Shown here: in pieces, positions 3,693 through 56,165 of the stretch
Numbering within the stretch: the first letter of the stretch is position 1
Layout: each line of letters opens with the position of its first letter
Source of the DNA: Candidatus Buchananbacteria bacterium
Lineage (GTDB): Bacteria > Patescibacteriota > Patescibacteriia > CAIXNZ01
Reading direction: 5' to 3'
Length of the DNA stretch: 64,000 nt
NCBI GenBank assembly: GCA_014729025.1
Contig: WJKP01000011.1
Coordinates: 6,500 to 70,499 of the forward strand
Notes under the pieces: model-generated
The model's input: the letters and a program-made list of their open reading frames with translations, nothing else
What the model was told of the DNA's origin: nothing
Databases searched by the model: none
Made by a program: the position numbers and the translations under genes

Positions 3693-3694
3693 AT

Positions 3695-4423
3695 ATGGCT
3701 AAAGAAAAAAAATTAATCAAATTAATTGATATTTGTAAACAATACGAGAACGAGGAAGTCGTGACTAAAGTTCTTTATGATATTAATTTGGAAGTTAATA
3801 AAGGTGAGTTTGTGGCAATCATGGGGCCGTCTGGTTCCGGTAAATCAACCCTGATGCATATAATGGGTTTTTTAGATAAACCAACTTCAGGCACTTATTA
3901 TTATAAGGGTAAAAAAGTTAGTGATTTTGATGAAGATAAATTGGCTGATATTCGTAATGAAGAAGTCGGGTTTGTTTTTCAAACTTTTAATTTATTACAG
4001 CGAACAAGTGTTTACGATAATGTTAATTTACCATTGACTTATTCAGATAAAAAAATTGGCGATCAAGATGTTATTCAGGCAATCAAATCCGTCGGCTTGT
4101 ATCATCGTAAAGATAATTTATCAAATCAGTTATCAGGCGGTGAAAAACAAAGAGTGGCGATTGCCAGAGCTTTGGTTAATCGGCCTGAAATTATTTTTGC
4201 TGACGAACCGACTGGGAATCTTGATTCCCAAAGTGGCAAACAGATCATGGAAATTTTGCAGGATCTTAATGAAAAAGGTAATACCATTATTCTGGTTACT
4301 CATGAAAAATATACGGCTGAGCATGCCCGGCGTATAGTTAGTATTATCGATGGCAAGATTGTTGATGATTATCAGGTGAAAAAGCGTTTGATAGCTAAAG
4401 ATGAAAAATATTTAACTAAATAA
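3695..4423 (+). CDS. ABC transporter ATP-binding protein (MacB/LolD-like)
   Basis: Walker A 'GPSGSGKSTL', ABC signature 'LSGGEKQRVAIARAL', Walker B 'IIFADEPTGNLD'. Confidence 0.9.
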   Translation: MAKEKKLIKLIDICKQYENEEVVTKVLYDINLEVNKGEFVAIMGPSGSGKSTLMHIMGFLDKPTSGTYYYKGKKVSDFDEDKLADIRNEEVGFVFQTFNLLQRTSVYDNVNLPLTYSDKKIGDQDVIQAIKSVGLYHRKDNLSNQLSGGEKQRVAIARALVNRPEIIFADEPTGNLDSQSGKQIMEILQDLNEKGNTIILVTHEKYTAEHARRIVSIIDGKIVDDYQVKKRLIAKDEKYLTK

Positions 4424-4425
4424 TT

Positions 4426-5667
4426 ATGGATGTGGCTAATTCTATCAGAATAGCCTTGATAGGTTTAAAGTCTAAAAAGACCCGAACATTTTTAACAATG
4501 CTCGGGATTATTGTTGGTATTGCTTCGGTTATTATTATTTTATCAGTCGGTGCCGGTGCGCAGAGTTTGATTTTAAATCAAATCAGGGGATTTGGCAGTA
4601 ATTTGATTTCTATTTTTCCGGGTGCTTCAGAAGAAGAAGGTCCGCCGCCCACGGTTTTTGGTACGGTTAATACTGATTTAAAAAATGAAGATATAGAGGC
4701 TCTAATGAATTCTAAAAGAGTGCCGCATGCAGTGGCAGCCACTTATTATATTCAAGGTTCAGAAACTTTCAGATGGCGCAGTCAGCAGTTTGACGGTACT
4801 TATATTGCTACGACAGCTTCTTATTTGGAAGTACATGATGAAATACCGGCTAAAGGCAGATTTATAAATAAGCAAGAAGAAAAAAATTTAGCCAGAGTAG
4901 CTGTTTTAGGCAGTAATGTCAAAAAAGAATTATTTGATAATTTAGATGCTATTGGTGAAAAAATTAAGATTGGTCGGCACCAGTTTAAAATAATTGGTGT
5001 CATGAAACCTAGGGGGGTAGAAGGTTTTCAAAATCAGGATAATTTGGTTTTTATTCCGATTTCTACGGGACAAAAAATAATTCAAGGTATAGATTATGTG
5101 ACTTTAGCCAGGGTTAAAGTTGATTCACCTGATAATATTGAACGAACAGTGGAAGATGTTCGCCAGGTTTTAAGAGAAGAGCATAGGTTGGAAGTGGGTG
5201 AAATTGATGATTTTTCGGTTCGTTCTCAGGCGCAGGCTATTGAAATTTTTTCCGCCGTGACTGATTCATTGACTTATTTTTTAGCTGCCATTGCCGCTAT
5301 TTCTTTATTGGTTGGCGGTATTGGTATTATGAATATTATGCTTATAAGTGTGACTGAAAGAACCAGGGAAATCGGTTTGCGTAAAGCGGTCGGGGCTAAA
5401 AATAAAAATATATTAAATCAATTTTTATTGGAATCAGTCGTGGTTACTTTGGGCGGCGGTGTTGTTGGTATAATTTTGGGTATTTCGATTTCTTGGTTAG
5501 TGGCTTATATTGCTCAATATTTAGGGTTTGATTGGGATTTTGTGATTTCTTTTCTATCAATAATTTTATCAACTACTATTGCAATTATAGTCGGTATTGT
5601 TTTTGGTTTATATCCGGCCTGGAAAGCTTCTCAGCTTAATCCGATTGAAGCTTTACGTTATGAATAG
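4426..5667 (+). CDS. ABC transporter permease, FtsX/MacB family
   Basis: N-terminal TM, large periplasmic domain, C-terminal 3-4 TM bundle with 'REIGLRKAVGA' motif typical of FtsX-like permeases. Confidence 0.75.
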   Translation: MDVANSIRIALIGLKSKKTRTFLTMLGIIVGIASVIIILSVGAGAQSLILNQIRGFGSNLISIFPGASEEEGPPPTVFGTVNTDLKNEDIEALMNSKRVPHAVAATYYIQGSETFRWRSQQFDGTYIATTASYLEVHDEIPAKGRFINKQEEKNLARVAVLGSNVKKELFDNLDAIGEKIKIGRHQFKIIGVMKPRGVEGFQNQDNLVFIPISTGQKIIQGIDYVTLARVKVDSPDNIERTVEDVRQVLREEHRLEVGEIDDFSVRSQAQAIEIFSAVTDSLTYFLAAIAAISLLVGGIGIMNIMLISVTERTREIGLRKAVGAKNKNILNQFLLESVVVTLGGGVVGIILGISISWLVAYIAQYLGFDWDFVISFLSIILSTTIAIIVGIVFGLYPAWKASQLNPIEALRYE

Positions 5668-31314: not shown

Positions 31315-33105
31315 ATGAGTCGTGTTGATATAAAAATAGGTTTTGCTTGCAATAATATGTGCCAATTTTGTGTGCAAGGAGATAAAAGGTTTAAATTTAA
31401 AAACCGTACGCTTAATGAAATAAAAAAAGCGTTAAAAACAGCTAACGCGCAAGGCAGTCAGGGGGTTGTTTTTACTGGTGGTGAACCAACATTACATGAC
31501 AATATTTTAGAGGCAGTTAAGTATGCTAATGATTTAGGTTTTCAATCAATTCAGTTGCAAACTAATGGTCGGATGCTGGCTTATTTTGGTTTTTGTCAAA
31601 AATTAATAAAAGCCGGTATAAATGAATTTTCACCAGCCTTGCATGCTTCAATACCCCAAATTCATGATGAATTAACCAGTAGTCCTGGCGCTTGGGAACA
31701 AGTTGTACAGGGTATTAAAAATTTAAAATTATTAAATCAGTTTGTTTTAACAAATACTGTGATAACCAGCAAGAATTATAAAGATTTACCTGCTTTAGCC
31801 AAGTTATTTATTGATTTGGGCGTGGATCAATTCCAGTTTGCTTTTGTTCATATTTTGGGCAGCGCAGCTCAGCATAAAGACTGGCTGGTGCCTCAAAAAT
31901 CAGAGATTATGCCTTACGTAAAAAAGGGGTTAGATGTTGGCATTAAAGCAAACAAGAGGGTTATGACAGAAGCAATTCCGTATTGCTTAATGACTGGTTA
32001 TGAGGATTACATTGCAGAAAAGATAATGCCTGAAACACAAGTTGTTGATGCTGAAGGCGTGATCGCCAGTTATGCTAAATATCGGCATACAGAAGGTAAG
32101 GTTAAGAGCAAAGAATGTGAGACATGCAAATATTTTAAAATTTGCGAAGGTCCGTGGAAAGAATATCCGGAAATTTACGGTTGGAATGAATTTATACCAA
32201 TAAAGAAATTATCAATAAATAAAAAAAAACAAATAAATAATAATTTTAAAAAAAATAAAAATGATATAGCCTTTTTTAATTTTGTTGGTAAATTTAATTT
32301 AATTGATTTTAAGGAGTATTTGCCAAATTTAATCTCATTTAAAATAATAAAAAATGAAAAAAATAGTTATTGCGTATTATTAAAAAATGGCGATGATGAT
32401 GTTTTTTTAAAAACTTATCGATGGCAAGGGAATAAATTTTATAATTTTGTTAAAATTTATAATTCTTTATCAAAAGAAATCAATTTGCCACAGATAATCT
32501 CTATATCTGATTTTGTCGTGCCAGAAACAAATGAAAAAATTTTCCTTGTATTAACTGACTACCTGAAAGATTTGGTTAATAATAAAGATAAATTTAAAGA
32601 AGCAAATCTTAAATTAATAATTGATCAGGTCGTAAGATTGCATCAAATTGATAATGTTATTATTAAAAATAATATGTTTAATAATAAATTTTTTTTAGAT
32701 CAAATGATTATAAAAAATAATCCCATTGATATTAATAAAATCATTTATTATTTAAAAGATAAGCTTGATAAAATTTCAGCCCAGGGTTTGTGTCATTTTG
32801 TTTTAAAACCTGAACATTTTATTTTTAATAAAAATAAAGTATACATGATTGATCTTGATAATATAAGTTATGATTATTTGATATTCGATTTAGCTGCTTT
32901 AATTGAAAGATTTTTATATAAAGATAAATATTCTTATACAAGAAAATATCTAAAAGATTTTGTAACATTATATTTTAAAAAAAATAAAAAAGTTAAATTT
33001 AATAAGAATGTATTGTATCAAGCCTGTAAGTTGATGGCTTATTATCAAAATGGTAGAGCTTTTCAGGATTTTGGACCGCTTGATGAATTTTTCAATGAAT
33101 TATAA
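31315..33105 (+). CDS. Radical SAM (paralog 5) fused to a C-terminal kinase-like (APH/WaaP-like phosphotransferase fold) domain
   Basis: N-terminal domain: 'IGFACNNMCQFCVQG', 'FTGGEPTLH', 'QTNGRML', 'IPYCLM...CETCKYFKICEGPWKEYPEIYGW'. C-terminal 300 aa: 'GLCHFVLKPEHFIF...VYMIDLDNISYDYLIFDLA', paralogous to 34627-35901. The catalytic-loop Asp is replaced (HFV instead of HFD). Confidence 0.75.
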   Translation: MSRVDIKIGFACNNMCQFCVQGDKRFKFKNRTLNEIKKALKTANAQGSQGVVFTGGEPTLHDNILEAVKYANDLGFQSIQLQTNGRMLAYFGFCQKLIKAGINEFSPALHASIPQIHDELTSSPGAWEQVVQGIKNLKLLNQFVLTNTVITSKNYKDLPALAKLFIDLGVDQFQFAFVHILGSAAQHKDWLVPQKSEIMPYVKKGLDVGIKANKRVMTEAIPYCLMTGYEDYIAEKIMPETQVVDAEGVIASYAKYRHTEGKVKSKECETCKYFKICEGPWKEYPEIYGWNEFIPIKKLSINKKKQINNNFKKNKNDIAFFNFVGKFNLIDFKEYLPNLISFKIIKNEKNSYCVLLKNGDDDVFLKTYRWQGNKFYNFVKIYNSLSKEINLPQIISISDFVVPETNEKIFLVLTDYLKDLVNNKDKFKEANLKLIIDQVVRLHQIDNVIIKNNMFNNKFFLDQMIIKNNPIDINKIIYYLKDKLDKISAQGLCHFVLKPEHFIFNKNKVYMIDLDNISYDYLIFDLAALIERFLYKDKYSYTRKYLKDFVTLYFKKNKKVKFNKNVLYQACKLMAYYQNGRAFQDFGPLDEFFNEL

Positions 33106-33111
33106 TTATAT

Positions 33112-34623
33112 ATGATTGATATATATTATAAAAAAGAACTTCAGAGTATTATTGCACCCATGCAGATAGGGCGCCAATATTTTAATTGGGATTTTAAGAA
33201 AATCATTTTAAATCGTATCGGCCCCTATTTTTTACAGGAAATAATTTTTTATTTTTTAAAAGATAATAATAATGCGTTAATGATATATTTGAGAAAAAAT
33301 AATGAATATTATCAATTGGATTACCAAGTTTTAAATGATGAATTATCAGCAAAAAAAATTTTTATTTTATTTGATAATTTATTAATAAAAAAACAAATTA
33401 TTCTTGAAAGAAGTTTAGTTTTTGCAGCCTTGCAAAACAATGAAAAAAATTTTTTAAATCGATTATCTCAAATTGATGAGAAAGAATTAATCAAATTATT
33501 ATCATTACCAGAGATTAAATTTATAAATAATAATGTAGAAGATAGTGATATTAAAATTTTATTTGATTTTAATTTAAATAGTTTTGGCCTTGGCGATTAT
33601 TTGATGAGCGATAGGAGTTTAATTAAAAATGGTTCAAATAATTTTATAATAACTGATTTGTATTCAGTTTTTGAGGGTAATAAAAATTTCAATGCTATTT
33701 ATTCGGATTTGAATTTATGTTTTTCTGAAAATGGGTTATTAGATAAGACCGTTGAACTTATTGATTATAACACCAAGCTTGATTATTTGGATGAAAATTT
33801 AAAAAATACTTATCATTTATTTTTATATAATCAATTTTATAAATTAATAAAAAATTCTTTAAAATTATTTAATTTTAAAGAATACCAGATGAATCCTCAA
33901 AAAGGGATTGATTTGTTATTATCAGAAATTAATAAAATAAAGAAAATAAATATACATTCCTTAGATTCCATGAATGATGAGAAAAATGAATTATATTTAA
34001 ATAATAAAGAATTTATAAAAATTATTGGTAAGCAAATTAAAAAAAATAAAAAAATCATTGGGATTAGCGCAAATTATGCCGAAGGTTTTCCTGATAATGC
34101 GCCTAAAGGCTGGGCCTTGGCTAATTGGTTGGAATTAATTAATTTATTAAGTCAAAAATTTAATGATTTGCATTTTTTTTTATTGCCAGTTAATAATGAA
34201 GATATTTTAAATATAGAAATATCTGAAAATAATTATCATTTTAAAATATTTAATAATTTAAAAGATAAAGTTGATTTGGTTTTTATTGATGAATTGATTA
34301 AAAAATATATTTTTAAAAAAAGCATATTTGATAATATTTTATTAAAAAATACAAGTTTAGAATTTTTAAAAACAGCAATAAGTTTTTGTGATTTGGTAAT
34401 AGCTTTGGATAGTGCTCCGGCTCATATGGCTGCTTCGCTAGAAGTGCCTGTTGTTTCTTTGTTTAGTGAAAAAGGCGATATTAGAAAATTCAAGCCATTG
34501 GGTGATAAATCTTTTACCTTGCATAAAGAAAAAGAAGGGGAATATTTAAATATTAATAATATTTCAGCTCAAGAAGTTTTTGATCTATTAATTAAAGAAA
34601 ATTTAATTATCAAACGAAAATAA
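33112..34623 (+). CDS. Glycosyltransferase family 9-like protein (heptosyltransferase / BAHT-type GT-B fold)
   Basis: C-terminal domain 'KIIGISANYAEGFPDNAPKGWALANWLELINLL...LVIALDSAPAHMAASLEVPVVSLFS' matches the GT9 donor-binding motif (D-S/T-G-P-M-H-L-A-A-A...P-V-V-A-L-F-G). The N-terminal 300 aa are divergent. Confidence 0.55.
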   Translation: MIDIYYKKELQSIIAPMQIGRQYFNWDFKKIILNRIGPYFLQEIIFYFLKDNNNALMIYLRKNNEYYQLDYQVLNDELSAKKIFILFDNLLIKKQIILERSLVFAALQNNEKNFLNRLSQIDEKELIKLLSLPEIKFINNNVEDSDIKILFDFNLNSFGLGDYLMSDRSLIKNGSNNFIITDLYSVFEGNKNFNAIYSDLNLCFSENGLLDKTVELIDYNTKLDYLDENLKNTYHLFLYNQFYKLIKNSLKLFNFKEYQMNPQKGIDLLLSEINKIKKINIHSLDSMNDEKNELYLNNKEFIKIIGKQIKKNKKIIGISANYAEGFPDNAPKGWALANWLELINLLSQKFNDLHFFLLPVNNEDILNIEISENNYHFKIFNNLKDKVDLVFIDELIKKYIFKKSIFDNILLKNTSLEFLKTAISFCDLVIALDSAPAHMAASLEVPVVSLFSEKGDIRKFKPLGDKSFTLHKEKEGEYLNINNISAQEVFDLLIKENLIIKRK

Positions 34624-34626
34624 TTT

Positions 34627-35901
34627 ATGGAAATTGGGATTAGAGATAAAAATGAAAACGATTTAGTCAAAAAAATTATTAATTATAATAAAATTAATAA
34701 TTTAGTAAAACCGATAAAAAGATATGAAATTACGGCGATTGATTTGGTTAATAAAAATTTATATTTAAAAATAAAAAATAACGAGACAGGTGATGTTTTG
34801 CGAATAGTTTTAACTACCAATAAGAGGAAAGATTTATTAAGTATAGATAATAAATTGTTTTTTTACTATTACTCAGATTATTTGAATAAATTTGATAATT
34901 TGCTTTGTAAAAATATAATGAAAATCATGTATAGTAATATTAATAATAATCGAGAATTATTTAATACTGCCATTGATTTAATAAAAAATGAAAATATTTT
35001 TGATAGAGATTTTGAATATTTTGAGGATGAAGATACCGGGCGTAAATTACAAGTAAATAAAAAAAATATAGCGAAATTAGAAAAAAATATTAATTTAAAT
35101 TTAATAAAAAACAAATGGCCCAATATGAATGTTGCTAATGAAATATTTAGTTATGATGAAACAAGACTTCGTTATAAATTAATTGATAAAAATAATCAAG
35201 CTTATTTTTTGAAAATTTTTACCGGTGCCAATAATGATATTGATAATTTAATAAAAATAAATAAATTATTAGCTGATAAAATAAATGTGCCGAAGGTTAT
35301 TGATTTTCAAAAAGATGATAAGTTTTATTGGGTATTATATGAATTTTTAGATCCCGCCAAGATTCTTGATAAACAAAAAATAAATTTAGCAGTTAAAGAA
35401 ATAGTAAAATTTCATAATGTTAAGTTTGATATGGGAAATCAACCAGAAGGTAGTAAATTTAATAAAGTTAAAAATAATTATTATTTATATAAAGAAGAAA
35501 TTATTGATAAGGATATTTTAGAAAAAGCATTAAATTATTTGCAGAATAATCTTGGCCCAAAAGGTTGGTGCCATTTTGATTTAGAAATGAGGCATTTTAT
35601 TTATTCTAATGATAAAATGTATTTAACTGATATTGATTCTATTAAATATGATTATATAGTTTTAGATCTCGGTTTATTTATTCGCTATTTACTTAAAAAA
35701 AATCAGTCGCATTTCATAGCGCCATTAATTGAATTATATTTAAAAAATAATAAGTCTTATAAATTTGATAAAAAAATATTATTTTATGCCACTATTATTA
35801 TGGTATATTATAAAGAGGATGAAAATTTAATTAGTAATCATAATTTACATAAAAATTTGAATCAAGAAATTAATTTAATTAGAAATTATTTTAATATTTA
35901 A
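34627..35901 (+). CDS. Kinase-like protein (APH/WaaP/Kdo-kinase-like phosphotransferase fold)
   Basis: 'GWCHFDLEMRHFIYSNDKMYLTDIDSIKYDYIVLDLG' gives H-x-D catalytic loop plus a DID metal-binding motif. Paralogous to the C-terminal domain of the rSAM fusion. Confidence 0.5.
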   Translation: MEIGIRDKNENDLVKKIINYNKINNLVKPIKRYEITAIDLVNKNLYLKIKNNETGDVLRIVLTTNKRKDLLSIDNKLFFYYYSDYLNKFDNLLCKNIMKIMYSNINNNRELFNTAIDLIKNENIFDRDFEYFEDEDTGRKLQVNKKNIAKLEKNINLNLIKNKWPNMNVANEIFSYDETRLRYKLIDKNNQAYFLKIFTGANNDIDNLIKINKLLADKINVPKVIDFQKDDKFYWVLYEFLDPAKILDKQKINLAVKEIVKFHNVKFDMGNQPEGSKFNKVKNNYYLYKEEIIDKDILEKALNYLQNNLGPKGWCHFDLEMRHFIYSNDKMYLTDIDSIKYDYIVLDLGLFIRYLLKKNQSHFIAPLIELYLKNNKSYKFDKKILFYATIIMVYYKEDENLISNHNLHKNLNQEINLIRNYFNI

Positions 35902-35903
35902 AT

Positions 35904-37412
35904 ATGATACAATTAATTATAAATTATTCTATTGTTTCGCTTATTATTATAATAGGTTTGATAGTTACCCTTACTGATTTTCGAGAAAGCAGAATAAAGA
36001 ATAAATATATTAAATTAGGGATTTATATAGGGTTAATTTATTATATTATATTATTTTTCATTACTGTTTTGTCGCGTTTTTATGCTTTATCTTATTATTT
36101 CCCCCCTCAATATTATTTATTTATTTTAATTAATACTTTAATTGGTTTTATTTTGGCTTTTATTTTGTGGAATCTTAAATTATGGGCCGGAGGCGATGCC
36201 AAGCTTTTTACCCTTTATGTTTTTTTAATACCTTTATTTTTTTATTCAGAAGCATATTTGCCATTTTTCCCAGCTATTAATTTATTAATAAATATAATAA
36301 TTCCTATTTTTATTTATTTATTAATTAAGATGTTAATTTATCCAATCAGCTTATTTATTAGTCATTTGAAAAATCCCAAATTGGTCAAGGAATATTTTAA
36401 AAAACATAGAGAACAAAATAAGTTTGATAAATCAAAAATAAAAGAATATCTAAATAGTGGTCTTAGTTTTTTATTAATTTTAATTTTTTTCCAATTATTA
36501 AGAAATAAAGTTAATGAATTTTTAGATCCTTATTTGGGTAATATGGTTTATGCCACTTATTTTTTTATGGGTTTTGTTATTTTTAAACCATTGAGAGTTT
36601 TTTTAAAAGAAAAAGTTTTGCTTGTTTTAATTGGTGTATCGGCTTATTTTATTATTAGTTACTTTTATTTTCATGAACAGGTTTTTGCAGAATTGCATAA
36701 AGTTTTTGCCTTGCAAATGATTTTTATGATGTCTTATTTTTATATTTTTAAATATGGCCGAGCTTTGGGACAATTTTTATATAATTCAGCAGAAGTTAAA
36801 ATGGTTCCGGTTGAAGAATTAAGTTCTGGCAATTATATTAATAAAGGTTACATAAGAAAAATAATGGGGAATAGGAATAATTTAGATAATTTCAAACAAG
36901 ATATTGAAAATGTTTTGTCAGAAGAAGAACATAATAACTTAGCCCAATTGATTGAGGAAAAGGTGGGGCAAACTGGTAATGAAAAAAAACAATATAAGAT
37001 AATTTCTGTTTTCAGGAATTTACGTCCAGAGAGTGCTTTTAAAATTGCAAAACAGATATTTGAATATAAAAAACAAAAAAAACAAAGAAAAGAATTACTG
37101 GAAACAGTAAAAATAAAATTAAATGATAAGCAGAATAAGACCTTAGATAATATTTTAAATAACAATGATGATATTGATAATTTTTTAAAAAAAATTAAGG
37201 GGAAATTAAGCGAAGAACAAGCTCTAAGATTAAAAAGCATGATTGAAGAAAGGAATAAAGAGGTTGAGGATCAGGGCTTAGAGCCGATTAAACATATTAT
37301 ACTTCATAAAACATTTTCTTTTGCGCCTTTTATGTTATTGGGCGTTATAATTACTTTATTAACCAAAAGTTCAATTATTCATTTGATTTATGAATATATT
37401 TTGCACCGTTAG
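35904..37412 (+). CDS. A24-family (prepilin peptidase/TadV-like) aspartic peptidase homolog with long C-terminal Lys/Glu-rich coiled-coil domain
   Basis: First catalytic-Asp motif 'LTDFRESRIKN' (cf. D-L-R-x-R-R-I-P-N). Second 'LWAGGDAKLFTLYVFLIPL' (cf. GGGDVKLL). About 8 TM helices in the first 290 aa, then a 200-aa charged cytoplasmic tail and a final TM helix. Confidence 0.6.
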   Translation: MIQLIINYSIVSLIIIIGLIVTLTDFRESRIKNKYIKLGIYIGLIYYIILFFITVLSRFYALSYYFPPQYYLFILINTLIGFILAFILWNLKLWAGGDAKLFTLYVFLIPLFFYSEAYLPFFPAINLLINIIIPIFIYLLIKMLIYPISLFISHLKNPKLVKEYFKKHREQNKFDKSKIKEYLNSGLSFLLILIFFQLLRNKVNEFLDPYLGNMVYATYFFMGFVIFKPLRVFLKEKVLLVLIGVSAYFIISYFYFHEQVFAELHKVFALQMIFMMSYFYIFKYGRALGQFLYNSAEVKMVPVEELSSGNYINKGYIRKIMGNRNNLDNFKQDIENVLSEEEHNNLAQLIEEKVGQTGNEKKQYKIISVFRNLRPESAFKIAKQIFEYKKQKKQRKELLETVKIKLNDKQNKTLDNILNNNDDIDNFLKKIKGKLSEEQALRLKSMIEERNKEVEDQGLEPIKHIILHKTFSFAPFMLLGVIITLLTKSSIIHLIYEYILHR

Positions 37413-42700: not shown

Positions 42701-43282
42701 ATGGAAAACAAAAATAAAAATGACAATATTAGTTTGTCACAAAGTAAATATTTATTGATTCAAAAGATTTTGAAAAATATCCATGATAATTTAGGTAAAG
42801 TGATTGATGTTTTGGAGCAAGGGCCGGAAGAAGTTGATGATTTTGAGCAAACATTAACCGGTATGTCTCAGCAATTGAAAAATGTTGAAGATGAATTGGC
42901 GCTGGCCGGTGAGGAGAGGGTTATTGAAGGTGTTTTTGACGGTGAAAAAATGATTGCCCAGGACGGGCAGGAATATACTGTGCCCGCCAATTATGCTTCA
43001 AAGTCAAAATTGGTTGAAGGTGATATTTTAAAGTTAACAATAACTAAACAGGGTGATTTTTTGTACAAACAAATCGGTCCTGTGCAGCGTAAAAAAGTTG
43101 TCGGCCAATTGATTTTAGCTGATGATGACAATTATTACGTTGTAGCTGATAAAAAGAAATGGAAACTATTACCGGCCAGCGTGACTTATTTTAAAGGTGA
43201 TATCGGTGATGAAGTGGTTATTTTGGTGCCAAAAGATGCACAAAGTAAATGGGCGGCAGTTGAGAATATTGTGAAGAAATAA
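42701..43282 (+). CDS. Hypothetical protein
   Basis: 193-aa ORF. No motif recognised. Confidence 0.4.
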   Translation: MENKNKNDNISLSQSKYLLIQKILKNIHDNLGKVIDVLEQGPEEVDDFEQTLTGMSQQLKNVEDELALAGEERVIEGVFDGEKMIAQDGQEYTVPANYASKSKLVEGDILKLTITKQGDFLYKQIGPVQRKKVVGQLILADDDNYYVVADKKKWKLLPASVTYFKGDIGDEVVILVPKDAQSKWAAVENIVKK

Positions 43283-43399
43283 ATATAGAATGTTTAAATA
43301 CAGGCGGCTTGGCCTTTTTAGGCCGAGCCGCCCTTTAATTTGAACCTTAAATTTTTTAATAACTTGATTTTCTGAATCATTTCAATTAAAATAGACTAT

Positions 43400-45169
43400 A
43401 TGTCACTAACACTTTATCGTAAATATCGTCCGCAAACATGGGCTGACCTGACAGGGCAGAATCATATTAAAGTTACTTTGCAGCATGAAATTGAAAACAA
43501 CAAGGTTGCTCACGCTTATCTTTTTACTGGACCACGTGGAGTTGGTAAAACAACCACTGCCCGGCTTTTAGCCAAATCTTTAAATTGTCAGGATCGTAAA
43601 GACGGACAAAGCGAGCCTTGTAATAAATGCGAGTCTTGTTTGGAATTGGCTGGCGGTAATGATTTGGATATTTTGGAAGTTGACGCTGCTTCACATACCG
43701 GAGTTGATAATGTTAGGGAAAATATTATTGCTAATGCCAGGTTTACACCGGTTAAACGTAAATATAAAGTTTTTATTATCGATGAAGTTCATATGTTGTC
43801 AATTTCAGCTTTTAATGCGTTACTGAAAATATTGGAGGAACCGCCTGCTCATGCCATTTTTATTTTAGCCACAACCGAAGTTCATAAAGTGCCGGCAACT
43901 ATTATTTCCCGCTGTCAGCGGTTTGATTTTAAAAAAGTTAATGCTGATGATTTGATTAAACGTTTAACCTGGATTTGTCAGCAAGAAGACCTTAAAATCA
44001 GTAAAAAAGTTTTAAATAATATTGCCAGAGTCAGTGAAGGTTGTTTGCGTGATGCCGAAAGTTTATTGGGCCAGATTTTATCTTTAGGTGAAAAAGAAAT
44101 CAGTGAAGAAGAAGCCAGTTTAATTATCCCGGCGTCTAATTTTAATTTAATAGTTGAATTGATTGATAATTTGGTGTATAAAAATGCTGAAAAATCTATT
44201 AGTTTAATTAATAACCTGGTGACCGAAGGTTCTGATTTGGTGCAGTTTACTGATGAATTGATTGAATTTTTACGTAAAATGATTTTAAGTAAAATTACAT
44301 CAGGATTACAGGAATTTGCCACTGATTTAGATGATGAACAATCAAAAAAAATAATTGATTTAGCACAAAAATTTACGACCGAAGAATTAATTAAGTTGAT
44401 CAATCTTTTTACTGCTAAAAAATTTGAATTAAAAACAGCGGTTATTAGCCAGCTGCCTTTGGAAATTGCAATAATTGAATATTGCCAAGAAAAAAAATCA
44501 AATAATCAGTCTGATGATTCAGCCAACAGTGATAAGGGAACGGTTGGTCAAACTAAACCAGATATTGATAATAAACAATCTTTTGATGAGCCGCAACCAG
44601 TAAAATCTGAAATTTCGCTTGATTCGGGCCAAAATAATAATAATCAAGTCAATGATCCGCCCGATCAAGTTTTGGCGGATAAGTCGCAGGGGAATTTAAA
44701 AAATGGTGATAAAAGCACCATTTTAAAAAATGAAAATTTAGGTAAAACATCTAAAAAAGCGACTAAAGTAAAAATTAAGTTGTCAGAAATTAGACAAAAA
44801 TGGCATAGTTTTATTGTGGAAATGCAAAAACATAATGCTTCCTTAGTTTTTATTTTAAAAGTTGCAGAACCATTAGAACTAAACAATAATATTTTAAAAA
44901 TAGGTTTTCAGTATGAGTTTCATCAGCAACGGATTAACCAGCCCAAAGTTAGGGAATGTTTGGAAAATATTTTAGCTGATTTTTTTAAAGATAATTTAGT
45001 TGTTGAGACTTGTTTATTAGCTAAAGATTATCAAAGTGATTTTATTAAAGCTCAGACAGCTCAGGATGACGTTGAATTGGTTGATGAATTACCAACTGAA
45101 GAAGATCAGCAGCAAAAAGAATTAATTGACAACTTGGTTAAAACTTTTAATGGTAAAATAGTTGAATAA
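43400..45169 (+). CDS. dnaX: DNA polymerase III subunit gamma/tau
   Basis: 'QTWADLTGQNHIK...AHAYLFTGPRGVGKTTTARLLAKSLNC'. Zn module 'CNKCESC'. 'IIDEVHMLS' sensor motifs. Confidence 0.9.
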   Translation: MSLTLYRKYRPQTWADLTGQNHIKVTLQHEIENNKVAHAYLFTGPRGVGKTTTARLLAKSLNCQDRKDGQSEPCNKCESCLELAGGNDLDILEVDAASHTGVDNVRENIIANARFTPVKRKYKVFIIDEVHMLSISAFNALLKILEEPPAHAIFILATTEVHKVPATIISRCQRFDFKKVNADDLIKRLTWICQQEDLKISKKVLNNIARVSEGCLRDAESLLGQILSLGEKEISEEEASLIIPASNFNLIVELIDNLVYKNAEKSISLINNLVTEGSDLVQFTDELIEFLRKMILSKITSGLQEFATDLDDEQSKKIIDLAQKFTTEELIKLINLFTAKKFELKTAVISQLPLEIAIIEYCQEKKSNNQSDDSANSDKGTVGQTKPDIDNKQSFDEPQPVKSEISLDSGQNNNNQVNDPPDQVLADKSQGNLKNGDKSTILKNENLGKTSKKATKVKIKLSEIRQKWHSFIVEMQKHNASLVFILKVAEPLELNNNILKIGFQYEFHQQRINQPKVRECLENILADFFKDNLVVETCLLAKDYQSDFIKAQTAQDDVELVDELPTEEDQQQKELIDNLVKTFNGKIVE

Positions 45170-45178
45170 TATTAGTAA

Positions 45179-45325
45179 TTAGGTATTAGTCACTAGGCAT
45201 TGGTAATTAGTAATTAGAAAATTTAAAATCCCGCCTCTGGCCTCGTATTTGGCAGCGGCGCGTTTCGCGGTTTTGGCTGCGTTCTCTTTTTTTCTCAGTC
45301 CTTTTGCGTTGCGATGCTTGGCCAT
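45179..45325 (-). CDS. Small basic protein (hypothetical; ribosomal-protein-like composition)
   Basis: Minus-strand ATG at 45325 preceded by GGAGGAA. 'MAKHRNAKGLRKKENAAKTAKRAAAKYEARGG...'. No confident family. Confidence 0.3.
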   Translation of the reverse strand: MAKHRNAKGLRKKENAAKTAKRAAAKYEARGGILNFLITNYQCLVTNT

Positions 45326-45412
45326 GGCTAGTTCCTCCTTTTTTCTCGCTCTTGATTTTTTGAACACAATACGGTAATATATCAGATATTCGATTTTCGT
45401 AAAACTTAGAAC

Positions 45413-45487
45413 TATGGCGGGCAGGCAAGTGGTATTTAAAATTTTTATATTCTTGGGGAGTAGCCAAGTGGTAAGGCACCAGGTTCT
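45413..45487 (+). repeat. Direct repeat copy 1: duplicated tRNA-Gln promoter plus 5' half (to anticodon loop)
   Basis: 75 bp nearly identical (1 mismatch) to 45820-45894. Contains 'TGGGGAGTAGCCAAGTGGTAAGGCACCAGGTTCT', then diverges into tandem hairpins 'tcagccaaaggctga'/'tcagcctccggctga' flanked by a 'ttct' direct repeat. Confidence 0.85.
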
Positions 45488-45546
45488 TCAGCCAAAGGCT
45501 GATCAGCCTCCGGCTGAGGTTCTGGCTTAAAATAAAAATTAGAATT

Positions 45547-45787
45547 ATGTTTAAAACGTACGTAATTAAGAGTTTAACTCATAATACTAGATATATTGGT
45601 TCTTGTGAGTATTTAAATAAGCGAATTAAAGAACATAATGATGGGAAGTGTAGATACAAAAAGTAGACGTCCATGGGAATTGATATATTTTGAAGAGTTT
45701 AAAACTAGAACTGAAGCAATGAAAAGAGAGGATTTTTTGAAATCTGGTCAAGGCAGAAAATGGTTGGATGAGAAATTCAAAAAATAA
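45547..45787 (+). pseudogene. Small GIY-YIG nuclease family gene (UPF0213/YhbQ-like), frameshifted in an A5 run
   Basis: Frame 1: 'MFKTYVIKSLTHNTRYIGSCEYLNKRIKEHNDGKCRYKK*'. Frame +1 from 45656: 'TKSRRPWELIYFEEFKTRTEAMKREDFLKSGQGRKWLDEKFKK*'. Together these give a complete 80-aa GIY-YIG domain. The shift lies in aaaaa at 45658-45662. Confidence 0.75.
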
Positions 45788-45819
45788 ATAATGGGGAGTC
45801 GCCTCGCCTCCGCTAAAGT

Positions 45820-45894
45820 TATGGCGGGCAGGCAAGTGGTATTTAAAATTTTTATATTCTTGGGGAGTCGCCAAGTGGTAAGGCACCAGGTTCT
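45820..45894 (+). repeat. Direct repeat copy 2 (native tRNA-Gln promoter plus 5' half)
   Basis: See copy 1. An additional 12-nt fragment 'TGGGGAGTCGCC' (tRNA 5' end) occurs again at 45792-45803. Confidence 0.85.
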
Positions 45895-45935
45895 GGTCCT
45901 GGCATTCGCGGGTTCGAATCCTGCCTCCCCAGCCA
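45861..45935 (+). tRNA. tRNA-Gln (anticodon CUG), CCA encoded
   Basis: 75 nt. Acceptor TGGGGAG/CTCCCCA (U1-A72, as in bacterial tRNA-Gln). D-arm GCC-AAGTGGTAA-GGC. Anticodon stem CCAGG/CCTGG with loop TTCTGGT. T-arm GCGGG-TTCGAAT-CCTGC. Discriminator G, then CCA. Confidence 0.9.
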
Positions 45936-45954
45936 CAAGAACTTTTTATCGAGG

Positions 45955-45978
45955 AAGACCCGAGTGGGTCTTTTTTGA
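45955..45978 (+). terminator. Rho-independent terminator after tRNA-Gln
   Basis: AAGACCC-GAGT-GGGTCTT followed by TTTTTT. Confidence 0.75.
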
Positions 45979-46073
45979 TTTTTATTCAAATTGACTCTAA
46001 GCTATAATAAGGGTAAAATATAAGTAATTTAAGTAGCCCCAAAGGGGCCCCTTCGGGGCTAAAATTAAAATTT

Positions 46074-46652
46074 ATGAAAAAATTAACTCTTTTATTCTGT
46101 GCTTTATTAATTACTGTAATTTTTAGTGGTTGTACTAAAAAAGTGGAGCAAACCGAAGAAGGGACAAAAATAACAGAAGATAAAATCGTTACTGATGATG
46201 TAAGTTATGTAACCGACGATACAGAGGTCACCATACGAAGAAATAAGGTTACGAAACAAGCTTCTATTGAAATGGTATATAAAATAGCTGATGAGGATGA
46301 GTATGATGATTTTATGGGTGAACAAATGACTATGGTTCCGTTTTTAGTTAATACATCTTGTTCATTATTCACTACAGCGATTTTTGACCCAGATGCTTTT
46401 GCTGAATGGGAAGAAGATGAACAAGCTCAAAAGGATGATCAAATGGATAGTTATTTGGAAGGCTATAATACAAATAAAATTACAATAAAATTTGTTGACG
46501 CTGAAACGAATGATAAAATTGCTAATTGTGAATCAACTAAAGCTGGATTAGAAAATATTAAATTTGATATATTCAAGGACTATAGCGATGTTTCATCTCT
46601 TTTTGGGATTAAAATCGGTGAATACGATGATGAAGAATCCTCTCAAGAATAA
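46074..46652 (+). CDS. Lipoprotein (hypothetical)
   Basis: Signal peptide with lipobox 'IFSGC'. Acidic mature domain. Confidence 0.5.
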   Translation: MKKLTLLFCALLITVIFSGCTKKVEQTEEGTKITEDKIVTDDVSYVTDDTEVTIRRNKVTKQASIEMVYKIADEDEYDDFMGEQMTMVPFLVNTSCSLFTTAIFDPDAFAEWEEDEQAQKDDQMDSYLEGYNTNKITIKFVDAETNDKIANCESTKAGLENIKFDIFKDYSDVSSLFGIKIGEYDDEESSQE

Positions 46653-46671
46653 TTAGTTTAAATAATTTTTT

Positions 46672-49539
46672 ATGGATAAAAAGAAAATTATCTTAAATAC
46701 TCCTCAAGTTGAATTAGAACAAACTAAATTAAAAAAGAAACTTCAAGAATTAGTTAATAAATTCAAAGCCGAGGATGGTTGGTCAAAGTCTGAAGAGCAT
46801 ATTCAGACTAGTTTTACAGTTGAATTATTAAAAATACTGGGCTGGGATAGTTCTAACTGGATAATTAATACTGGGCAGGAAGTTAAAACAGGCAAAAAGC
46901 CAGATGTTATTATAAAATCAGATACAGGTGCAAAACTTTTAGTAATTGAATCAAAAGAAGCTTCTAATAAAGATAAATTGGATGGTTCTTATGGTAATAA
47001 AAAATTTACAGACCAACTGTTTAACTATTGCCATGGAGAAGGTTTGTCTTGGGGTGTCTTAACTAATTTTATTGAATGGCGTTTATACAGTGTTCACCAT
47101 GGTAGATTATACAAAGAACGAAAATACGCTTTCCATGAATTATTATGGAATAATGCTGAACAAAAATATTATATTGATTTATTATCAGAAGACGGAGTAA
47201 ATTTTTTAATGCAATTATCAAAATCAGAATTAACTAGAAAAAACGGAATTATTGATTCTGATCCTATTTATTATCCTGAGCAATTAGATCTTGAACAAGA
47301 TAAGATTAAAAAGGACTTTTTTAATAAAATCAAGGATTGGCGAGCTAGTTTGAAAAAATTTATTGCTAAAAATTATGCTAATTATGAAGTTGATAAAATA
47401 GATTTAATGGCTCAAAAGATAATCGACCGTATGATTTTTATTGACCTTTGCCATGACAAAAAAATATTAAGTTCAAATTATCTGGGTTCTGTTTTAGAAT
47501 CAAAACAATTAAAATATGAGGAGCTTAAGAATGTATTCAGTTCAATGGATGAAAAATTCAATACAGAACTTTTTGCTCATAATGATGCTGATGAACTAAA
47601 AATCAGTGATGACATTATTGTTAAAATTATCAAAGAGTTGGATGAGATTGATTTTAGTAAATTGAGTGTCCATATTATCGGTGAAGTTTATGAAAATTAC
47701 TTAGGTGAACTTTTACGTTCTAATGCCAGAAAAGAAGATACAATTAAACAAAAACAAAAATCCAAAAGGAAATCTCAAGGTATTTATTATACTCCAGCAT
47801 ATATTGTTGATTACATTGTTAAAAACACTGTTGGTGAATTATTAAAAAAATGCAAAACAGTTGAAGATATTGAAAAAGTAAAAGTATTAGACCCAGCATG
47901 CGGTTCAGGCTCATTTTTAATACGTGCCTTTGATGAATTTCATAACGCTTATTTGGAAAAACAAAAAGAAGGTGGCTTGTTTGGGTTTAATATTAGAAAA
48001 AAGATTTTACAAAAAAATCTTTTTGGTGTTGACCTTGATCCTAAGGCAATTGAAATTACAAAACTTAATTTAATGATTAAAGCCTTGGAAGGTGTTAACC
48101 CAAATGAATTAAAAGGAAAACATCTTTTACCGAATTTGAATTTAAACATTCGTTGTGGTAATTCATTGGTTGGTGGCGAGAAGCTTAAAGAAAAAGAGCA
48201 GAATCTTAATCTGTTTGATGATTATGAGACAGAAATCTCTAAATTAACGGAATTTAAAGAGAAATTTTATAAAGCCGAATTTAATGATGATAAGAAGCAA
48301 TTATTGGATGAAATTAATAAATTTGAAGCATTGATTAATGGAAAATTAAATGAGGGTCTGAAACAATATTTTAAAAATTTAGATAAAATAAAACCTTTTA
48401 ATTATTCAGTGGCTTTTTGTGAAATATTTAAAACTAGTGGTTTTGATGCTGTAATTGGTAATCCGCCGTATGGAGCAGAATTAAACCAAGATGAAAAGAA
48501 TTTTTATACTGAAAATTATAATATTGGCTCAACTGATACAGCTATTTTATTCATTAAAAATTCATATGACCTTATTAAGGATAATAGTAGATTTAGCTTT
48601 ATAGTTCCTAAAGCCTTTAGCTTCGCTTCTAACTATAAAAAAATCAGAAATTTTGTTTGGGATAATATTATTCAAATTATAGATTGCCGTAAAGTATGGA
48701 AAGAAGTTAAGTTAGAACAACTGGTCTTTGTTATCGATAAAAATAAAAAATCAACAAAATATTTATCCGCTAATTTTAAAAATCGACAATTAAATATTTT
48801 GGGAGAAATAAATAAAAAAGATGCAAAAGAATTTGGATTCTTTTTAAATAGTGTTACACCCGAAGAAGTTGAAATAGCTAAGAACATAAAAGATAATTCA
48901 ATAATGCTGAATGATATCGCAATTAATAGACGAGGCGCGATTTTACAAAAACATGTAACAGATAAAGGCGATTTGAAAGTTTTAGGCGGTGCCCAAATTC
49001 AAAAGTTTGGGGTAAGTGGGATTAAGGGGCAAATTGATAAGAATAAAATTAACTCAGATCAAGCTTATATCAAACCGAATTCCGTTCTAGCTCAAAATAT
49101 AGTTGCTCATATTGAAAATCCGAGTGATCATATAAAAATAATTGCTTGCGTTCCGGATAAAAATGACTTTATAATACTGGATACTATAAATCAAATAACC
49201 CTACAAAAAGAATATTTCCCTTATTTTGTTTGGGCAATATTAAATTCCAATTTATTAAACTGGTATGCTTATAGATTTATTTTTGGTAAGGCAATAAGGA
49301 CTATGCATTTTGATAACGCTGTTACGGCAAGATTGCCTATTCCTAAAGCAACTAAAGAACGACAAGAGGGTATTATTAAGAAAGCGAAAGAATTAATTAA
49401 ATTAAATAAGACTTCTGAATCACATGATAAAAATGCTGATAAGATAAGGGCAATTGATTATGAGATTGAAAAGGATTTGTGTAAGCTTTATGGTTTGAGA
49501 CTTGAAGATATTAATATTATAGAGAAAGTGAAAATATGA
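46672..49539 (+). CDS. Type IIG/IIL restriction-modification enzyme (MmeI/Eco57I-like fused endonuclease-methyltransferase-TRD)
   Basis: N-terminal PD-(D/E)xK-like 'KPDVIIKSDTGAKLLVIESKEASNK'. MTase motif I 'VLDPACGSGSFL'. Motif IV 'VIGNPPYGAE' (gamma-class N6-adenine MTase). 955 aa with C-terminal target-recognition region. Confidence 0.8.
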   Translation: MDKKKIILNTPQVELEQTKLKKKLQELVNKFKAEDGWSKSEEHIQTSFTVELLKILGWDSSNWIINTGQEVKTGKKPDVIIKSDTGAKLLVIESKEASNKDKLDGSYGNKKFTDQLFNYCHGEGLSWGVLTNFIEWRLYSVHHGRLYKERKYAFHELLWNNAEQKYYIDLLSEDGVNFLMQLSKSELTRKNGIIDSDPIYYPEQLDLEQDKIKKDFFNKIKDWRASLKKFIAKNYANYEVDKIDLMAQKIIDRMIFIDLCHDKKILSSNYLGSVLESKQLKYEELKNVFSSMDEKFNTELFAHNDADELKISDDIIVKIIKELDEIDFSKLSVHIIGEVYENYLGELLRSNARKEDTIKQKQKSKRKSQGIYYTPAYIVDYIVKNTVGELLKKCKTVEDIEKVKVLDPACGSGSFLIRAFDEFHNAYLEKQKEGGLFGFNIRKKILQKNLFGVDLDPKAIEITKLNLMIKALEGVNPNELKGKHLLPNLNLNIRCGNSLVGGEKLKEKEQNLNLFDDYETEISKLTEFKEKFYKAEFNDDKKQLLDEINKFEALINGKLNEGLKQYFKNLDKIKPFNYSVAFCEIFKTSGFDAVIGNPPYGAELNQDEKNFYTENYNIGSTDTAILFIKNSYDLIKDNSRFSFIVPKAFSFASNYKKIRNFVWDNIIQIIDCRKVWKEVKLEQLVFVIDKNKKSTKYLSANFKNRQLNILGEINKKDAKEFGFFLNSVTPEEVEIAKNIKDNSIMLNDIAINRRGAILQKHVTDKGDLKVLGGAQIQKFGVSGIKGQIDKNKINSDQAYIKPNSVLAQNIVAHIENPSDHIKIIACVPDKNDFIILDTINQITLQKEYFPYFVWAILNSNLLNWYAYRFIFGKAIRTMHFDNAVTARLPIPKATKERQEGIIKKAKELIKLNKTSESHDKNADKIRAIDYEIEKDLCKLYGLRLEDINIIEKVKI

Positions 49540-55800: not shown

Positions 55801-56057
55801 ACTGTTTCTTTCCCTTACGGGAAACTGTATTAAACTTTGTACTCTTTTATAAAGACTGTTTGCTATGGTTCTTGTAGAACCTAGTAATAGTATACCAAAT
55901 AGCCCTTTTTTATGTCAAGTTTTTCATTATAATAAGTAGATAAATTGTAGATTAAAACGCTTTACTTAAGCTTAAAAATATATTATAGTATTAACAAATT
56001 GAATATATGTATATAGACCTAAACCATTTGTATTTTACAGTTGGCATGGTCTCAAAA

Positions 56058-56165
56058 ACCTAACACATAAAGACGGCTTCATTGTCGGTCCTATGTGTTA
56101 GGTCCATACTCGAAAGGGTGTGGTGATACTCGCAAGAGTATCTCCGACGTGGAGCCTTTTTTGTT
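56058..56165 (+). ncRNA. Structured GC-enriched intergenic element (candidate small RNA or 5' leader) upstream of the GmrSD-like gene
   Basis: Perfect 12-bp inverted repeat ACCTAACACATA-N22-TATGTGTTAGGT. GNRA-tetraloop hairpin GATACTC-GCAA-GAGTATC. Short hairpin plus TTTTTTG at 56142-56163. Local GC is well above background. Confidence 0.3.

Follow-up and report, generated by a model that had tools for sequence, protein, structure and literature searches.

How does a tRNA gene come to stand beside a displaced copy of its own 5′ half, with two small hairpins and a tiny nuclease gene in between? The locus that raises this question lies in a 64,000-nt stretch of contig WJKP01000011.1 from a Candidatus Buchananbacteria bacterium (the window; the features of the locus described below are all on the plus strand). 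Here, an intact tRNA-Gln(CUG) gene with anticodon ctg (45861–45935; called by ARAGORN, 59.3 bits with the Rfam tRNA model) is preceded by a gene for a single-domain GIY-YIG nuclease and, further upstream, by a 30-nt double hairpin, termed module M. We consider it rather probable that M and the nuclease gene of ~80 amino acids (aa) form a selfish cassette, which breaks tRNA-gene loops and spreads or duplicates by recombination, and that the copy in the window is a decaying, multi-layered one.

Two direct repeats of 75 nt (45413–45487 and 45820–45894), at a distance of 407 nt, share 74/75 positions, an identity well past chance level; the sole mismatch, A45462 versus C45869, falls on tRNA position 9. 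The downstream copy runs into the intact tRNA-Gln. The upstream copy ends with a displaced tRNA-Gln 5′ part that covers positions 1–34 (45454–45487, A at position 9, 33/34 identical to the intact tRNA) and stops in the anticodon loop, between anticodon bases 2 and 3. A third piece of tRNA 5′ end, the 12-nt TGGGGAGTCGCC at 45792–45803, begins 4 nt past the GIY-YIG stop codon (45785–45787). On these points, the preliminary description of the locus, made from the letters alone, was accurate.

The insert behind the displaced half spans 45488–45517 and consists of TCAGCC-AAA-GGCTGA followed by TCAGCC-TCC-GGCTGA, 15 nt each, that is, two 6-bp stems (NNNGCC/GGCNNN) with the 3-nt loops AAA and TCC. 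Two hairpins had been described correctly here, but their joint length is 30 nt and not 32 nt, and the module occurs only once within the 64-kb window. Directly after M, tRNA sequence resumes: GGTTCTGGC (45518–45526) equals tRNA positions 35–43 (GGTCCTGGC) bar one C>T change and closes the anticodon stem around M. A DNA fold of the fragment has this stem closed, with the hairpin region enclosed (−14.2 kcal/mol, z = −2.2). A 20-nt AT-rich spacer (45527–45546) then leads to the GIY-YIG start codon. The letters “ttct” that had been taken for flanking duplications are physically present on both sides of M; they are nevertheless not a target-site duplication, because the second “ttct” lies inside the resumed 3′ strand of the anticodon stem. 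The same strand resumes in two related loci, L081 (GGTCCTAGC) and L084 (GGTCCAG), which both carry the 1–34 fragment of tRNA-Gln followed by hairpins. Rfam searches, at the gathering threshold or at E≤1, matched nothing at M or at the tRNA fragments, the intact tRNA being the only match.

The nuclease gene of the window (45547–45787) is split into two open reading frames (ORFs), 45547–45666 and 45638–45787. Its repaired translation of ~79 aa (relatives 77–85 aa) contains GIY-YIG as its sole Pfam domain (PF01541, 53.8 bits against a cutoff of 22.6, E 2.4e-14), so that a frameshifted gene of this type was rightly recognized, yet one of the causes proposed for the frameshift, a miscount in an A5 homopolymer, does not hold. 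Although the A5 run adjoins the frameshift, such a miscount is ruled out by a deficit of 2 nt relative to the intact genes of L081 and L084: a premature TAG stands at 45664–45666, and the net loss maps around 45651–45663, where the window reads TGTAG--ATACAAAAAGT against TGCAGGTACACAAAAGG and TGCAAGTATACAAATGG in these two homologs. With a 1-nt repair of any kind, the near-invariant Thr/Gly of CRYTxGR is lost; deletion of one A brings the gene back into frame at the cost of a codon in the near-invariant CRYTxGRxPW segment. The window gene therefore lacks the intact reading frame of a functional gene. The catalytic residues Y5, Y16, G18, R26, H30, N31, and E61, invariant or near-invariant among 46 aligned sequences (alignment A1), are all present, as are the other invariant residues apart from the frameshift. 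Since these residues are kept, inactivation of the gene is probably recent and real, as judged from its sequence.

The family to which the protein belongs is large, comprising 5,310 clusters at 50% identity (E≤1e-10), and its alignment contains 13 invariant columns, including the C-terminal FLKSGQGRKW motif. The closest solved relatives by sequence and fold are UPF0213 proteins (YazA/YhbQ) and the Slx1 domain. The A1 profile matches the UPF0213 proteins BH0048 (1ZG2, E 4e-11) and EF2693 (1YWL, 8e-10), then SLX1 (5e-5), and the AlphaFold model (pLDDT 93) is structurally nearest to Slx1, including its 5′-flap complex, UPF0213, and I-TevI. Slx1 cuts branched DNA and stem-loops in a structure-specific manner; for YazA/YhbQ, we know of no association with tRNAs or hairpins. 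The cassette family differs from both in its own invariant C-terminal motif, RExFLKSGQGRKWL, and in its genomic context. NCBIfam holds no model for the family and gave only a sub-threshold match to a group I intron endonuclease. A tblastn search of plasmids returned yazA-type genes only. Among 2.9 million viral contigs, a single distant relative was found (L087, an IMG/VR contig); its gene, 46% identical, lies in the region 2850–3300 between tRNA 3′ fragments, in one of which a single TCCGCC-TCA-GGCGGA hairpin replaces the anticodon arm. ARAGORN called no intact tRNA at this locus.

A scan of one genome per species yielded 420 confirmed relatives of the repaired protein. Eighty of these loci were analyzed together with L081, which came from an exact look-up, 81 in total (mostly Patescibacteria) and 82 with the window. 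Their order is recurrent: a tRNA 5′ part ending in the D-, anticodon, or T-loop, M, 6–9 nt that complete the interrupted stem, the GIY-YIG gene, and an intact tRNA. A same-strand tRNA was called by ARAGORN between −25 and +160 nt of the GIY-YIG stop codon in 57/82 loci, including the window; in relatives it starts at −23 to +30 nt, and at least 12 loci have the stop codon within the tRNA. Downstream tRNAs are most often of the Gln type (27 loci), followed by Asn (10), Tyr (7), Ser (5), and Lys (3), with Ile, Thr, Cys, and Met also represented; 11 loci harbor a tRNA immediately before the gene. Because the nuclease gene reaches up to position +1 of an intact copy of this tRNA, or even overlaps it, the cassette is bracketed by two copies of the tRNA 5′ part. 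The upstream one was found in 50 loci, in 36 of them with 100% identity. It ends in the T-loop in 18 loci, in the D-arm in 13, and in the anticodon loop in 11, and is directly followed by a window-type hairpin in 35. The left junction of the cassette always falls within a tRNA loop, be it the T-loop, the anticodon loop, or the D-loop. Past the hairpins, the resumed tRNA sequence just completes the interrupted stem and ends at its 3′ foot, with GAATCC plus stem in T-loop cases. The same layout beside tRNA genes in dozens of independent assemblies thus bears out the original idea of footprints left by a GIY-YIG-associated insertion or duplication that keeps the tRNA intact.

Several loci carry more than one unit. 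On a 2.17-Mb Ignavibacteriales contig (L052), four tandem 326-nt units of tRNA-Ser(gga) 1–21, M, and GIY-YIG gene (2919–4310) precede an intact tRNA, and six tandem 101-nt units of tRNA-Ser(cga) 1–20, M, and spacer (1376–1930) lack a nuclease gene. Two tandem cassette units are present in L020, partial 3′ pieces of a second GIY-YIG gene lie upstream in L015, L019, and L033, and L084 retains an AAATATT remnant. In L012, L014, L020, and L031, pseudo-tRNAs carry hairpins in two or even three of their loops. In 13/71 loci (L022, L018, L008, L075, and others), another M stands downstream of the intact tRNA, with the remaining 3′ part of the tRNA behind it; these loci accordingly display a hairpin-cargo-hairpin layout. 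Contig ends are frequent at distances of no more than a few hundred nucleotides from the cassette or the dnaX-tRNA-Gln spacer (L088, L090, L091, and many of L001–L080), suggesting that cassette-linked repeats break metagenome assemblies.

Module M was searched for solely by its fixed GCC-N3-GGC-N6-GCC-N3-GGC spacing within ≤150 nt upstream of the start codon. It was found in 51 loci as 42 distinct 30-mers (alignment A3), at 8–37 nt from the ATG in most of them. When these modules are read as two hairpins, 99% of cells pair, compared with 29–40% in slid controls, and the 42 distinct modules contain 73 double-change cells versus 20.8 ± 3.2 in shuffles (0/500), with double changes in all six outer stem pairs (UA/CG, CG/GC/UA, CG/AU). 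One long hairpin scores below shuffles and was ruled out; given this and the two-hairpin pairing, the conserved feature is a pair of small hairpins. Such conservation would be expected for a structure that forms on a single strand. M is also pseudo-symmetric, as on either strand loop 1 is purine-rich (RRA) and loop 2 pyrimidine-rich (TYY). Junctions lie at the center of TTYRAA-like sequences (TTC|GAA in T-loops, TTT|GAA and TTTT|AA in anticodon loops, TTT|AAC in the Ser D-loop); that of the window reads TTCT|GG.

The exact 30-nt M of the window was additionally found in frame inside dnaX of L084 (module 4075–4104, gene 2912–4621), where it encodes QPKADQPPAE in the variable linker (flanks ...GGAAATTAA|M|AAAAGAAG). 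Comparison with L084 shows that M is absent from the window’s own DnaX. The module can therefore land outside tRNA genes, in like manner to the Rickettsia palindromic elements.

DnaX, encoded upstream of the locus in the window, served to locate the orthologous site in relatives, whose DnaX proteins are 64–88% identical and hence not from within the species. Four states of the site were seen: empty, without a nuclease gene, filled, and decayed. In L085 and L086 (DnaX 66%; contigs of 332 and 208 kb), a single tRNA-Gln follows dnaX after 27 nt with nothing else, which provides the cassette-free site that the comparison suggested in the preliminary description was meant to find. L090, L089, and L091 (DnaX 64–66%) harbor an intact tRNA and a footprint without a nuclease gene, composed of tRNA-Gln 1–12, a GC-rich hairpin insert of 30 or 60 nt ending in GGCAGGC, AAGTGGT, and ~20 nt before the tRNA, in tandem duplicate in L091. 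L084 (DnaX 68%) is filled, with tRNA positions 1–34, M, GGTCCAG, an intact 82-aa gene whose stop TAG occupies tRNA positions 7–9, the tRNA, and an older D-loop layer upstream. In the closest relative, L082 (DnaX 88%), a decayed nuclease pseudogene (MFKI*, 48% identity) abuts the tRNA without M. An insertion private to this genome and recent, as first assumed, is thus not what is seen, the site being already occupied in relatives with DnaX 68–88% identical (intact in L084, decayed in L082). A shared arrangement with an intact gene in relatives had been named as a sign of ancient stability; half of this applies.

The same comparison explains the remainder of the window locus. The stretch 45792–45860 corresponds to the old layer of L090 (alignment A2): tRNA-Gln 1–12 (45792–45803, C at position 9), which ends at the boundary of D-stem and D-loop and stands directly behind the GIY-YIG gene, where the tRNA canonically lies; a degenerate GC-rich 30-nt insert in the D-loop of the old tRNA copy, TCGCCTCCGCTAAAGTTATGGCGGGCAGGC (45804–45833), which aligns position for position with CTGCCTTCGCTAAAGCTTCGGCAGGCAGGC of L090; and AAGTGGTA (45834–45841) as D-loop resumption, followed by a 19-nt AT-rich spacer up to 45860. 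The D-loop insert measures 30 nt in the window and L090, and 60-nt versions are present in L084 and L089. Its 3′ 14 nt open copy B of the 75-nt repeat, and the spacer-bearing part 45834–45860 forms the rest of the 41-mer in that copy. In copy A, the 41-mer (45413–45453) likewise consists of the 14 nt TATGGCGGGCAGGC (45413–45426), AAGTGGTA representing tRNA-Gln positions 13–20 (45427–45434), and the 19-nt AT-rich spacer (45435–45453); it is homologous to L084 5096–5125 and to [insert ...GGCAGGC][AAGTGGT] of L090 and L089. The 41-mer had been regarded as a duplicated promoter. A consensus scan called no sigma-70-like site in it, and its homology to the older tRNA-derived layer in L089–L091 identifies it as the distal part of a D-loop-interrupted tRNA-Gln and for this reason not as a promoter copy. 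An intrinsic-terminator-like hairpin with T run (45948–45979, consensus scan) ends the unit. The locus should accordingly be annotated as one functional tRNA-Gln, two tRNA-Gln pseudo-fragments, and one nuclease pseudogene, with no duplicated promoter.

At its left edge (TATGG), the 75-nt repeat begins abruptly. Sequence to the left of copy A resembles L082, and that to the left of copy B resembles L084 and L090. The L082 stretch homologous to the 41-mer is clearly diverged from the window (alignment A2), and together with the 74/75 identity inside the window this indicates a recent duplication or gene-conversion tract superimposed on an old occupancy; nothing but the 75-nt repeat, at 99% identity, needs to be of recent origin. 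At tRNA position 9 (45462, 45800, and 45869), the displaced half shares an A with L084, L089, L090, and L091, whereas the intact tRNA and the 12-nt fragment share a C with L081. This single site hints that the 5′ part of the functional tRNA may have come with the cassette. L081 is the closest nuclease homolog (82% identity, 78 aa), yet resides at a tRNA-Gln(UUG) in a different neighborhood, and the first 26 nt of that tRNA are identical to those of the window tRNA. Its location at another isoacceptor and the pattern at position 9 point weakly to transfer between related genomes. A scan of metagenome contigs with exact 20-mers of the window 41-mer retrieved no conspecific contig.

A close parallel is provided by Ssn enzymes, single-domain GIY-YIG proteins of 94 aa that bind and cut single-stranded DNA (ssDNA) next to a hairpin repeat flanking their own gene (Chenal et al. 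2025, PMC11893778). The authors liken Ssn and its NTS to REP/RAYT and IS200/IS605 systems; tRNA linkage and partial tRNA duplication go unmentioned, the term “tRNA” appearing 0 times (PMC11893778). Common to both are a single GIY-YIG domain of ~80–95 aa that lacks a DNA-binding domain, a conserved GC-rich hairpin motif beside the gene, and, in the 13/71 loci described above, an IS-like hairpin-gene-hairpin order. The presence of M in 51 loci means that the cassette gene, as typical of Ssn, is accompanied by its own conserved hairpin repeat. They differ in that the NTS is a single 8-bp hairpin, whereas the cassette carries two 6-bp hairpins with 3-nt loops (NNNGCC N3 GGCNNN, twice), and in that Ssn repeats are dispersed in hundreds of copies, whereas cassette hairpins sit in loops of tRNA-gene copies.

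Short, often paired GC-rich palindromes flanking one small nuclease gene are shared with REP/REPIN-RAYT (TnpA-REP) and IS200/IS605 elements, as are hairpin-only copies (here the L052 array and the L084 dnaX insert). RAYT and IS200/IS605 nucleases recognize their palindromes as single-strand hairpins. They are, however, HUH/Y1 transposases, and the only ORF of the cassette encodes a GIY-YIG hydrolase instead of an HUH enzyme; strand transfer is therefore not expected. Their targets are tetranucleotides in intergenic DNA, compared with tRNA loops for the cassette. T4 SegB is a GIY-YIG homing endonuclease located in a tRNA cluster, whose recognition site holds a T-psi-C stem-loop motif and which drags adjacent tRNA genes along (PMC2330249). 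The likeness consists in a GIY-YIG gene among tRNA genes and in its varying presence between related genomes. SegB nonetheless comprises ~220 aa in two domains, cuts duplex DNA, is phage-borne, and lacks a hairpin module or duplicated tRNA halves, in contrast to the chromosomal cassette with its catalytic domain of 79–82 aa only. The C-terminal DNA-binding domain(s) of Seg-type proteins of 200–250 aa are missing from the cassette protein. By analogy, the cassette may work like Ssn/NTS and like a Seg-type homing endonuclease, although it fails the defining features of both, the SRM motif and the DNA-binding domain, respectively.

A further parallel, in fungal organelles, is offered by the double-hairpin elements (DHEs) of Allomyces mitochondria, mobile GC-rich inserts also found inside genes (cited in PMC2800124). 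DHEs and the associated mobile ORFs involve protein or rRNA genes, larger endonucleases, and unrelated hairpin sequences. In the atp6 hybrid gene, reportedly described by Paquin et al. 1994/2000, an inserted endonuclease ORF brought along a duplicate of part of the gene, so that gene function was maintained while a fragment of the original was displaced. The literature covered, which is incomplete and leaves novelty unproven, yielded no description of mini GIY-YIG genes flanked by tRNA fragments with hairpin interruptions; as far as could be found, this widespread tRNA-loop cassette of ultra-small bacteria is apparently undescribed.

How could a selfish cassette of this kind spread? Its nuclease, nearest to Slx1 and UPF0213 by sequence and fold, would act analogously to the hairpin-binding Ssn ssDNA nucleases and break the tRNA gene at a loop, with tRNA-gene DNA and M both folded into hairpins when single-stranded. 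The broken 3′ end, ending in the tRNA 5′ part, would then prime repair synthesis that copies from the left side of an M-GIY unit, the template being a sister chromosome, incoming DNA, or another tRNA gene with the same 5′ sequence. Such repair would yield the order tRNA 5′ part, M, GIY-YIG gene, tRNA, as well as tandem arrays and upstream 3′ remnants of the gene, and deletions between repeats would give rise to nested remnants and footprint-only sites. tRNA sequence bracketing the unit could serve as portable homology for homing into the same tRNA of related genomes. For the window, we envisage that a tRNA-Gln copy was first interrupted in its D-loop (45792–45841), that M and the GIY-YIG gene were later placed at the anticodon loop, that the 99% identity of the two 75-nt copies arose through a recent duplication or gene conversion, and that the nuclease gene thereafter lost 2 nt and would now be dead.

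More speculatively, M and the 80-aa protein may represent an undescribed class of minimal selfish elements, in which a hairpin-guided, structure-specific ssDNA nuclease homes into folded tRNA-gene loops, regenerates the tRNA by duplication of its 5′ part, and exploits conserved tRNAs as homology arms in thousands of lineages of Patescibacteria, Omnitrophota, Margulisbacteria, and Ignavibacteria, the hairpin/nuclease pairs amounting to a natural library of ssDNA cutters. This extension is a tentative possibility, to which we give clearly less credence than to the selfish cassette itself.

A number of points weigh against a selfish cassette. GIY-YIG enzymes are DNA hydrolases and not transposases, and therefore every insertion step would be left to host repair. 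Where the nuclease cuts is inferred, and so is its substrate, be it ssDNA, dsDNA, or RNA. The pseudo-symmetry of M also suits a dimer on duplex or cruciform DNA, and M is not dispersed, given its one copy in 64 kb. The published Ssn-related motif is without a match to M: the SRM pattern HGTCWYN(0-2)YYVSBRHN(0-5)WNVSBRGN(0-2)RNCYNB occurs 0 times in the window and 4 times in 404 kb of related loci versus 1.15 in shuffles. The viral contigs, 2.9 million in number, contributed one relative only. Within the clade, the locus is old and not a fresh insertion. The proposed mechanism also fails to explain how the duplication first arises at a new type of tRNA, why homology ends at the stem foot, and why M is symmetric. 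Finally, most GIY-YIG genes of the family are intact and their lineages track tRNA identity, nearest neighbors sharing the tRNA type in 54/70 cases versus 18 ± 4 expected; target specificity and vertical descent both fit this result, and the pattern would look no different if a useful gene had been passed on vertically for a long time.

The last point leads to the alternative that survives best, although we regard it as unlikely: a domesticated, vertically inherited operon, in which a host GIY-YIG factor is co-transcribed with the tRNA, the tRNA fragment and hairpins act as a leader or binding site kept tRNA-like by gene conversion, and the window copy was lost by mutation. Such a factor might, for example, act like SsnA of Neisseria in modulating transformation or recombination at hairpin sites, or it might resolve structures at highly transcribed tRNA genes. 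Conservation of most family members, with their 13 invariant columns, is compatible with this, and so are the tracking of tRNA types by nuclease lineages, which extends to two copies in one genome (L046 at Gln, L071 at Asn), the occupied site across relatives with DnaX 68–88% identical, the stop codons inside the tRNA at ≥12 loci, which imply co-transcription, and the host-level role of SsnA in Neisseria. Yet relatives with empty sites and with footprints devoid of the GIY-YIG gene, serial decayed layers, tandem arrays, variable loops and tRNAs, and M in frame in dnaX of L084 argue in the opposite direction, and empty sites, arrays, and nested decay are unexpected of a fixed regulatory leader. 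In addition, the closest genome pair holds two pseudogenes, and neither an Rfam family nor a promoter signal was found at the locus.

Far less credible is an artefact of assembly or sequencing, through stitching of filled and empty strain haplotypes or a homopolymer miscount. The frequent ends of contigs at the cassette do indicate that assemblers struggle there, and the frameshift is located beside an A5 run. The same layout is nevertheless present in >40 independent assemblies, including the 2.17-Mb contig of L052, a 1.67-Mb curated complete genome (L070), and contigs of 0.2–0.5 Mb. The 75-nt repeat is moreover shorter than the usual final k-mer length, the gene is 2 nt and not 1 nt short against two homologs, and the nearest relative, L082, carries a pseudogene at the site as well.

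An attL/attR footprint of a decayed integrase island or prophage in the anticodon loop of tRNA-Gln is highly improbable, although the direct repeat does include tRNA sequence. tRNA genes, anticodon loops included, are known integration sites, and the preliminary description had drawn on this analogy. It fails because no integrase lies between the repeats or beside them (43000–48500), and because the duplicated segment is the tRNA 5′ part with upstream sequence and not the 3′ part. The repeats are, furthermore, just 407 nt apart, and dozens of genomes share a unit of 0.3–0.4 kb that contains no ORF other than the GIY-YIG gene. A tRNA gene that functions in split, permuted, or intron-containing form, with an intron-encoded homing endonuclease, is equally implausible: GIY-YIG endonucleases are typical of group I introns, some bacterial tRNA genes contain such introns in the anticodon loop, and the window is interrupted there, but tRNA homology extends only 9 nt past the hairpins, a complete tRNA rather than a 3′ half follows the ORF, Rfam reveals no intron or ribozyme core even at E≤1, and junctions fall into D- and T-loops as well.

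If the selfish cassette is real, genes annotated as “GIY-YIG nuclease family protein” beside tRNAs in the Candidate Phyla Radiation (CPR) would belong to one system with a DNA signature of tRNA fragment, paired GCC/GGC hairpins, nuclease, and tRNA. This would account for pseudo-tRNA fragments and for contig breaks at tRNA loci of these metagenome-assembled genomes. The Ssn principle of a tiny GIY-YIG enzyme reading an ssDNA hairpin would be extended to a new motif and to a new target, tRNA-gene loops, and essential single-copy genes could be a lasting home for an element devoid of transposase or integrase. The hairpin/nuclease pairs, which co-vary naturally and number in the dozens, would then become candidate ssDNA tools.

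The surroundings of the locus show further features. Between dnaX and the tRNA locus, a small, very basic minus-strand ORF (MAKHRNAKGLRKKENAAKTAKRAAAKYEARGG..., 45179–45325) has no Pfam family; minus-strand ORFs of 97 aa (L084) and 110 aa (L088) occupy the same place, and that of L084 starts with a similar basic stretch. Downstream of the tRNA locus, the plus strand encodes a 955-aa Eco57I/MmeI-like fused restriction-methylase (46672–49539; PF07669, PF02384), separated from it by a 192-aa lipoprotein-like ORF of no family. LOOT RNA is an orphan structured RNA of unknown function. A member of its family (Rfam RF03000) was detected at 56016–56142 on the plus strand with 79.6 bits against a gathering score of 46.4. 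The GC content drops to 21–22% at 32–36 kb (32001–36000), compared with ~33% nearby, and the GC skew is negative at 52–56 kb and uniformly positive over the rest of the window.

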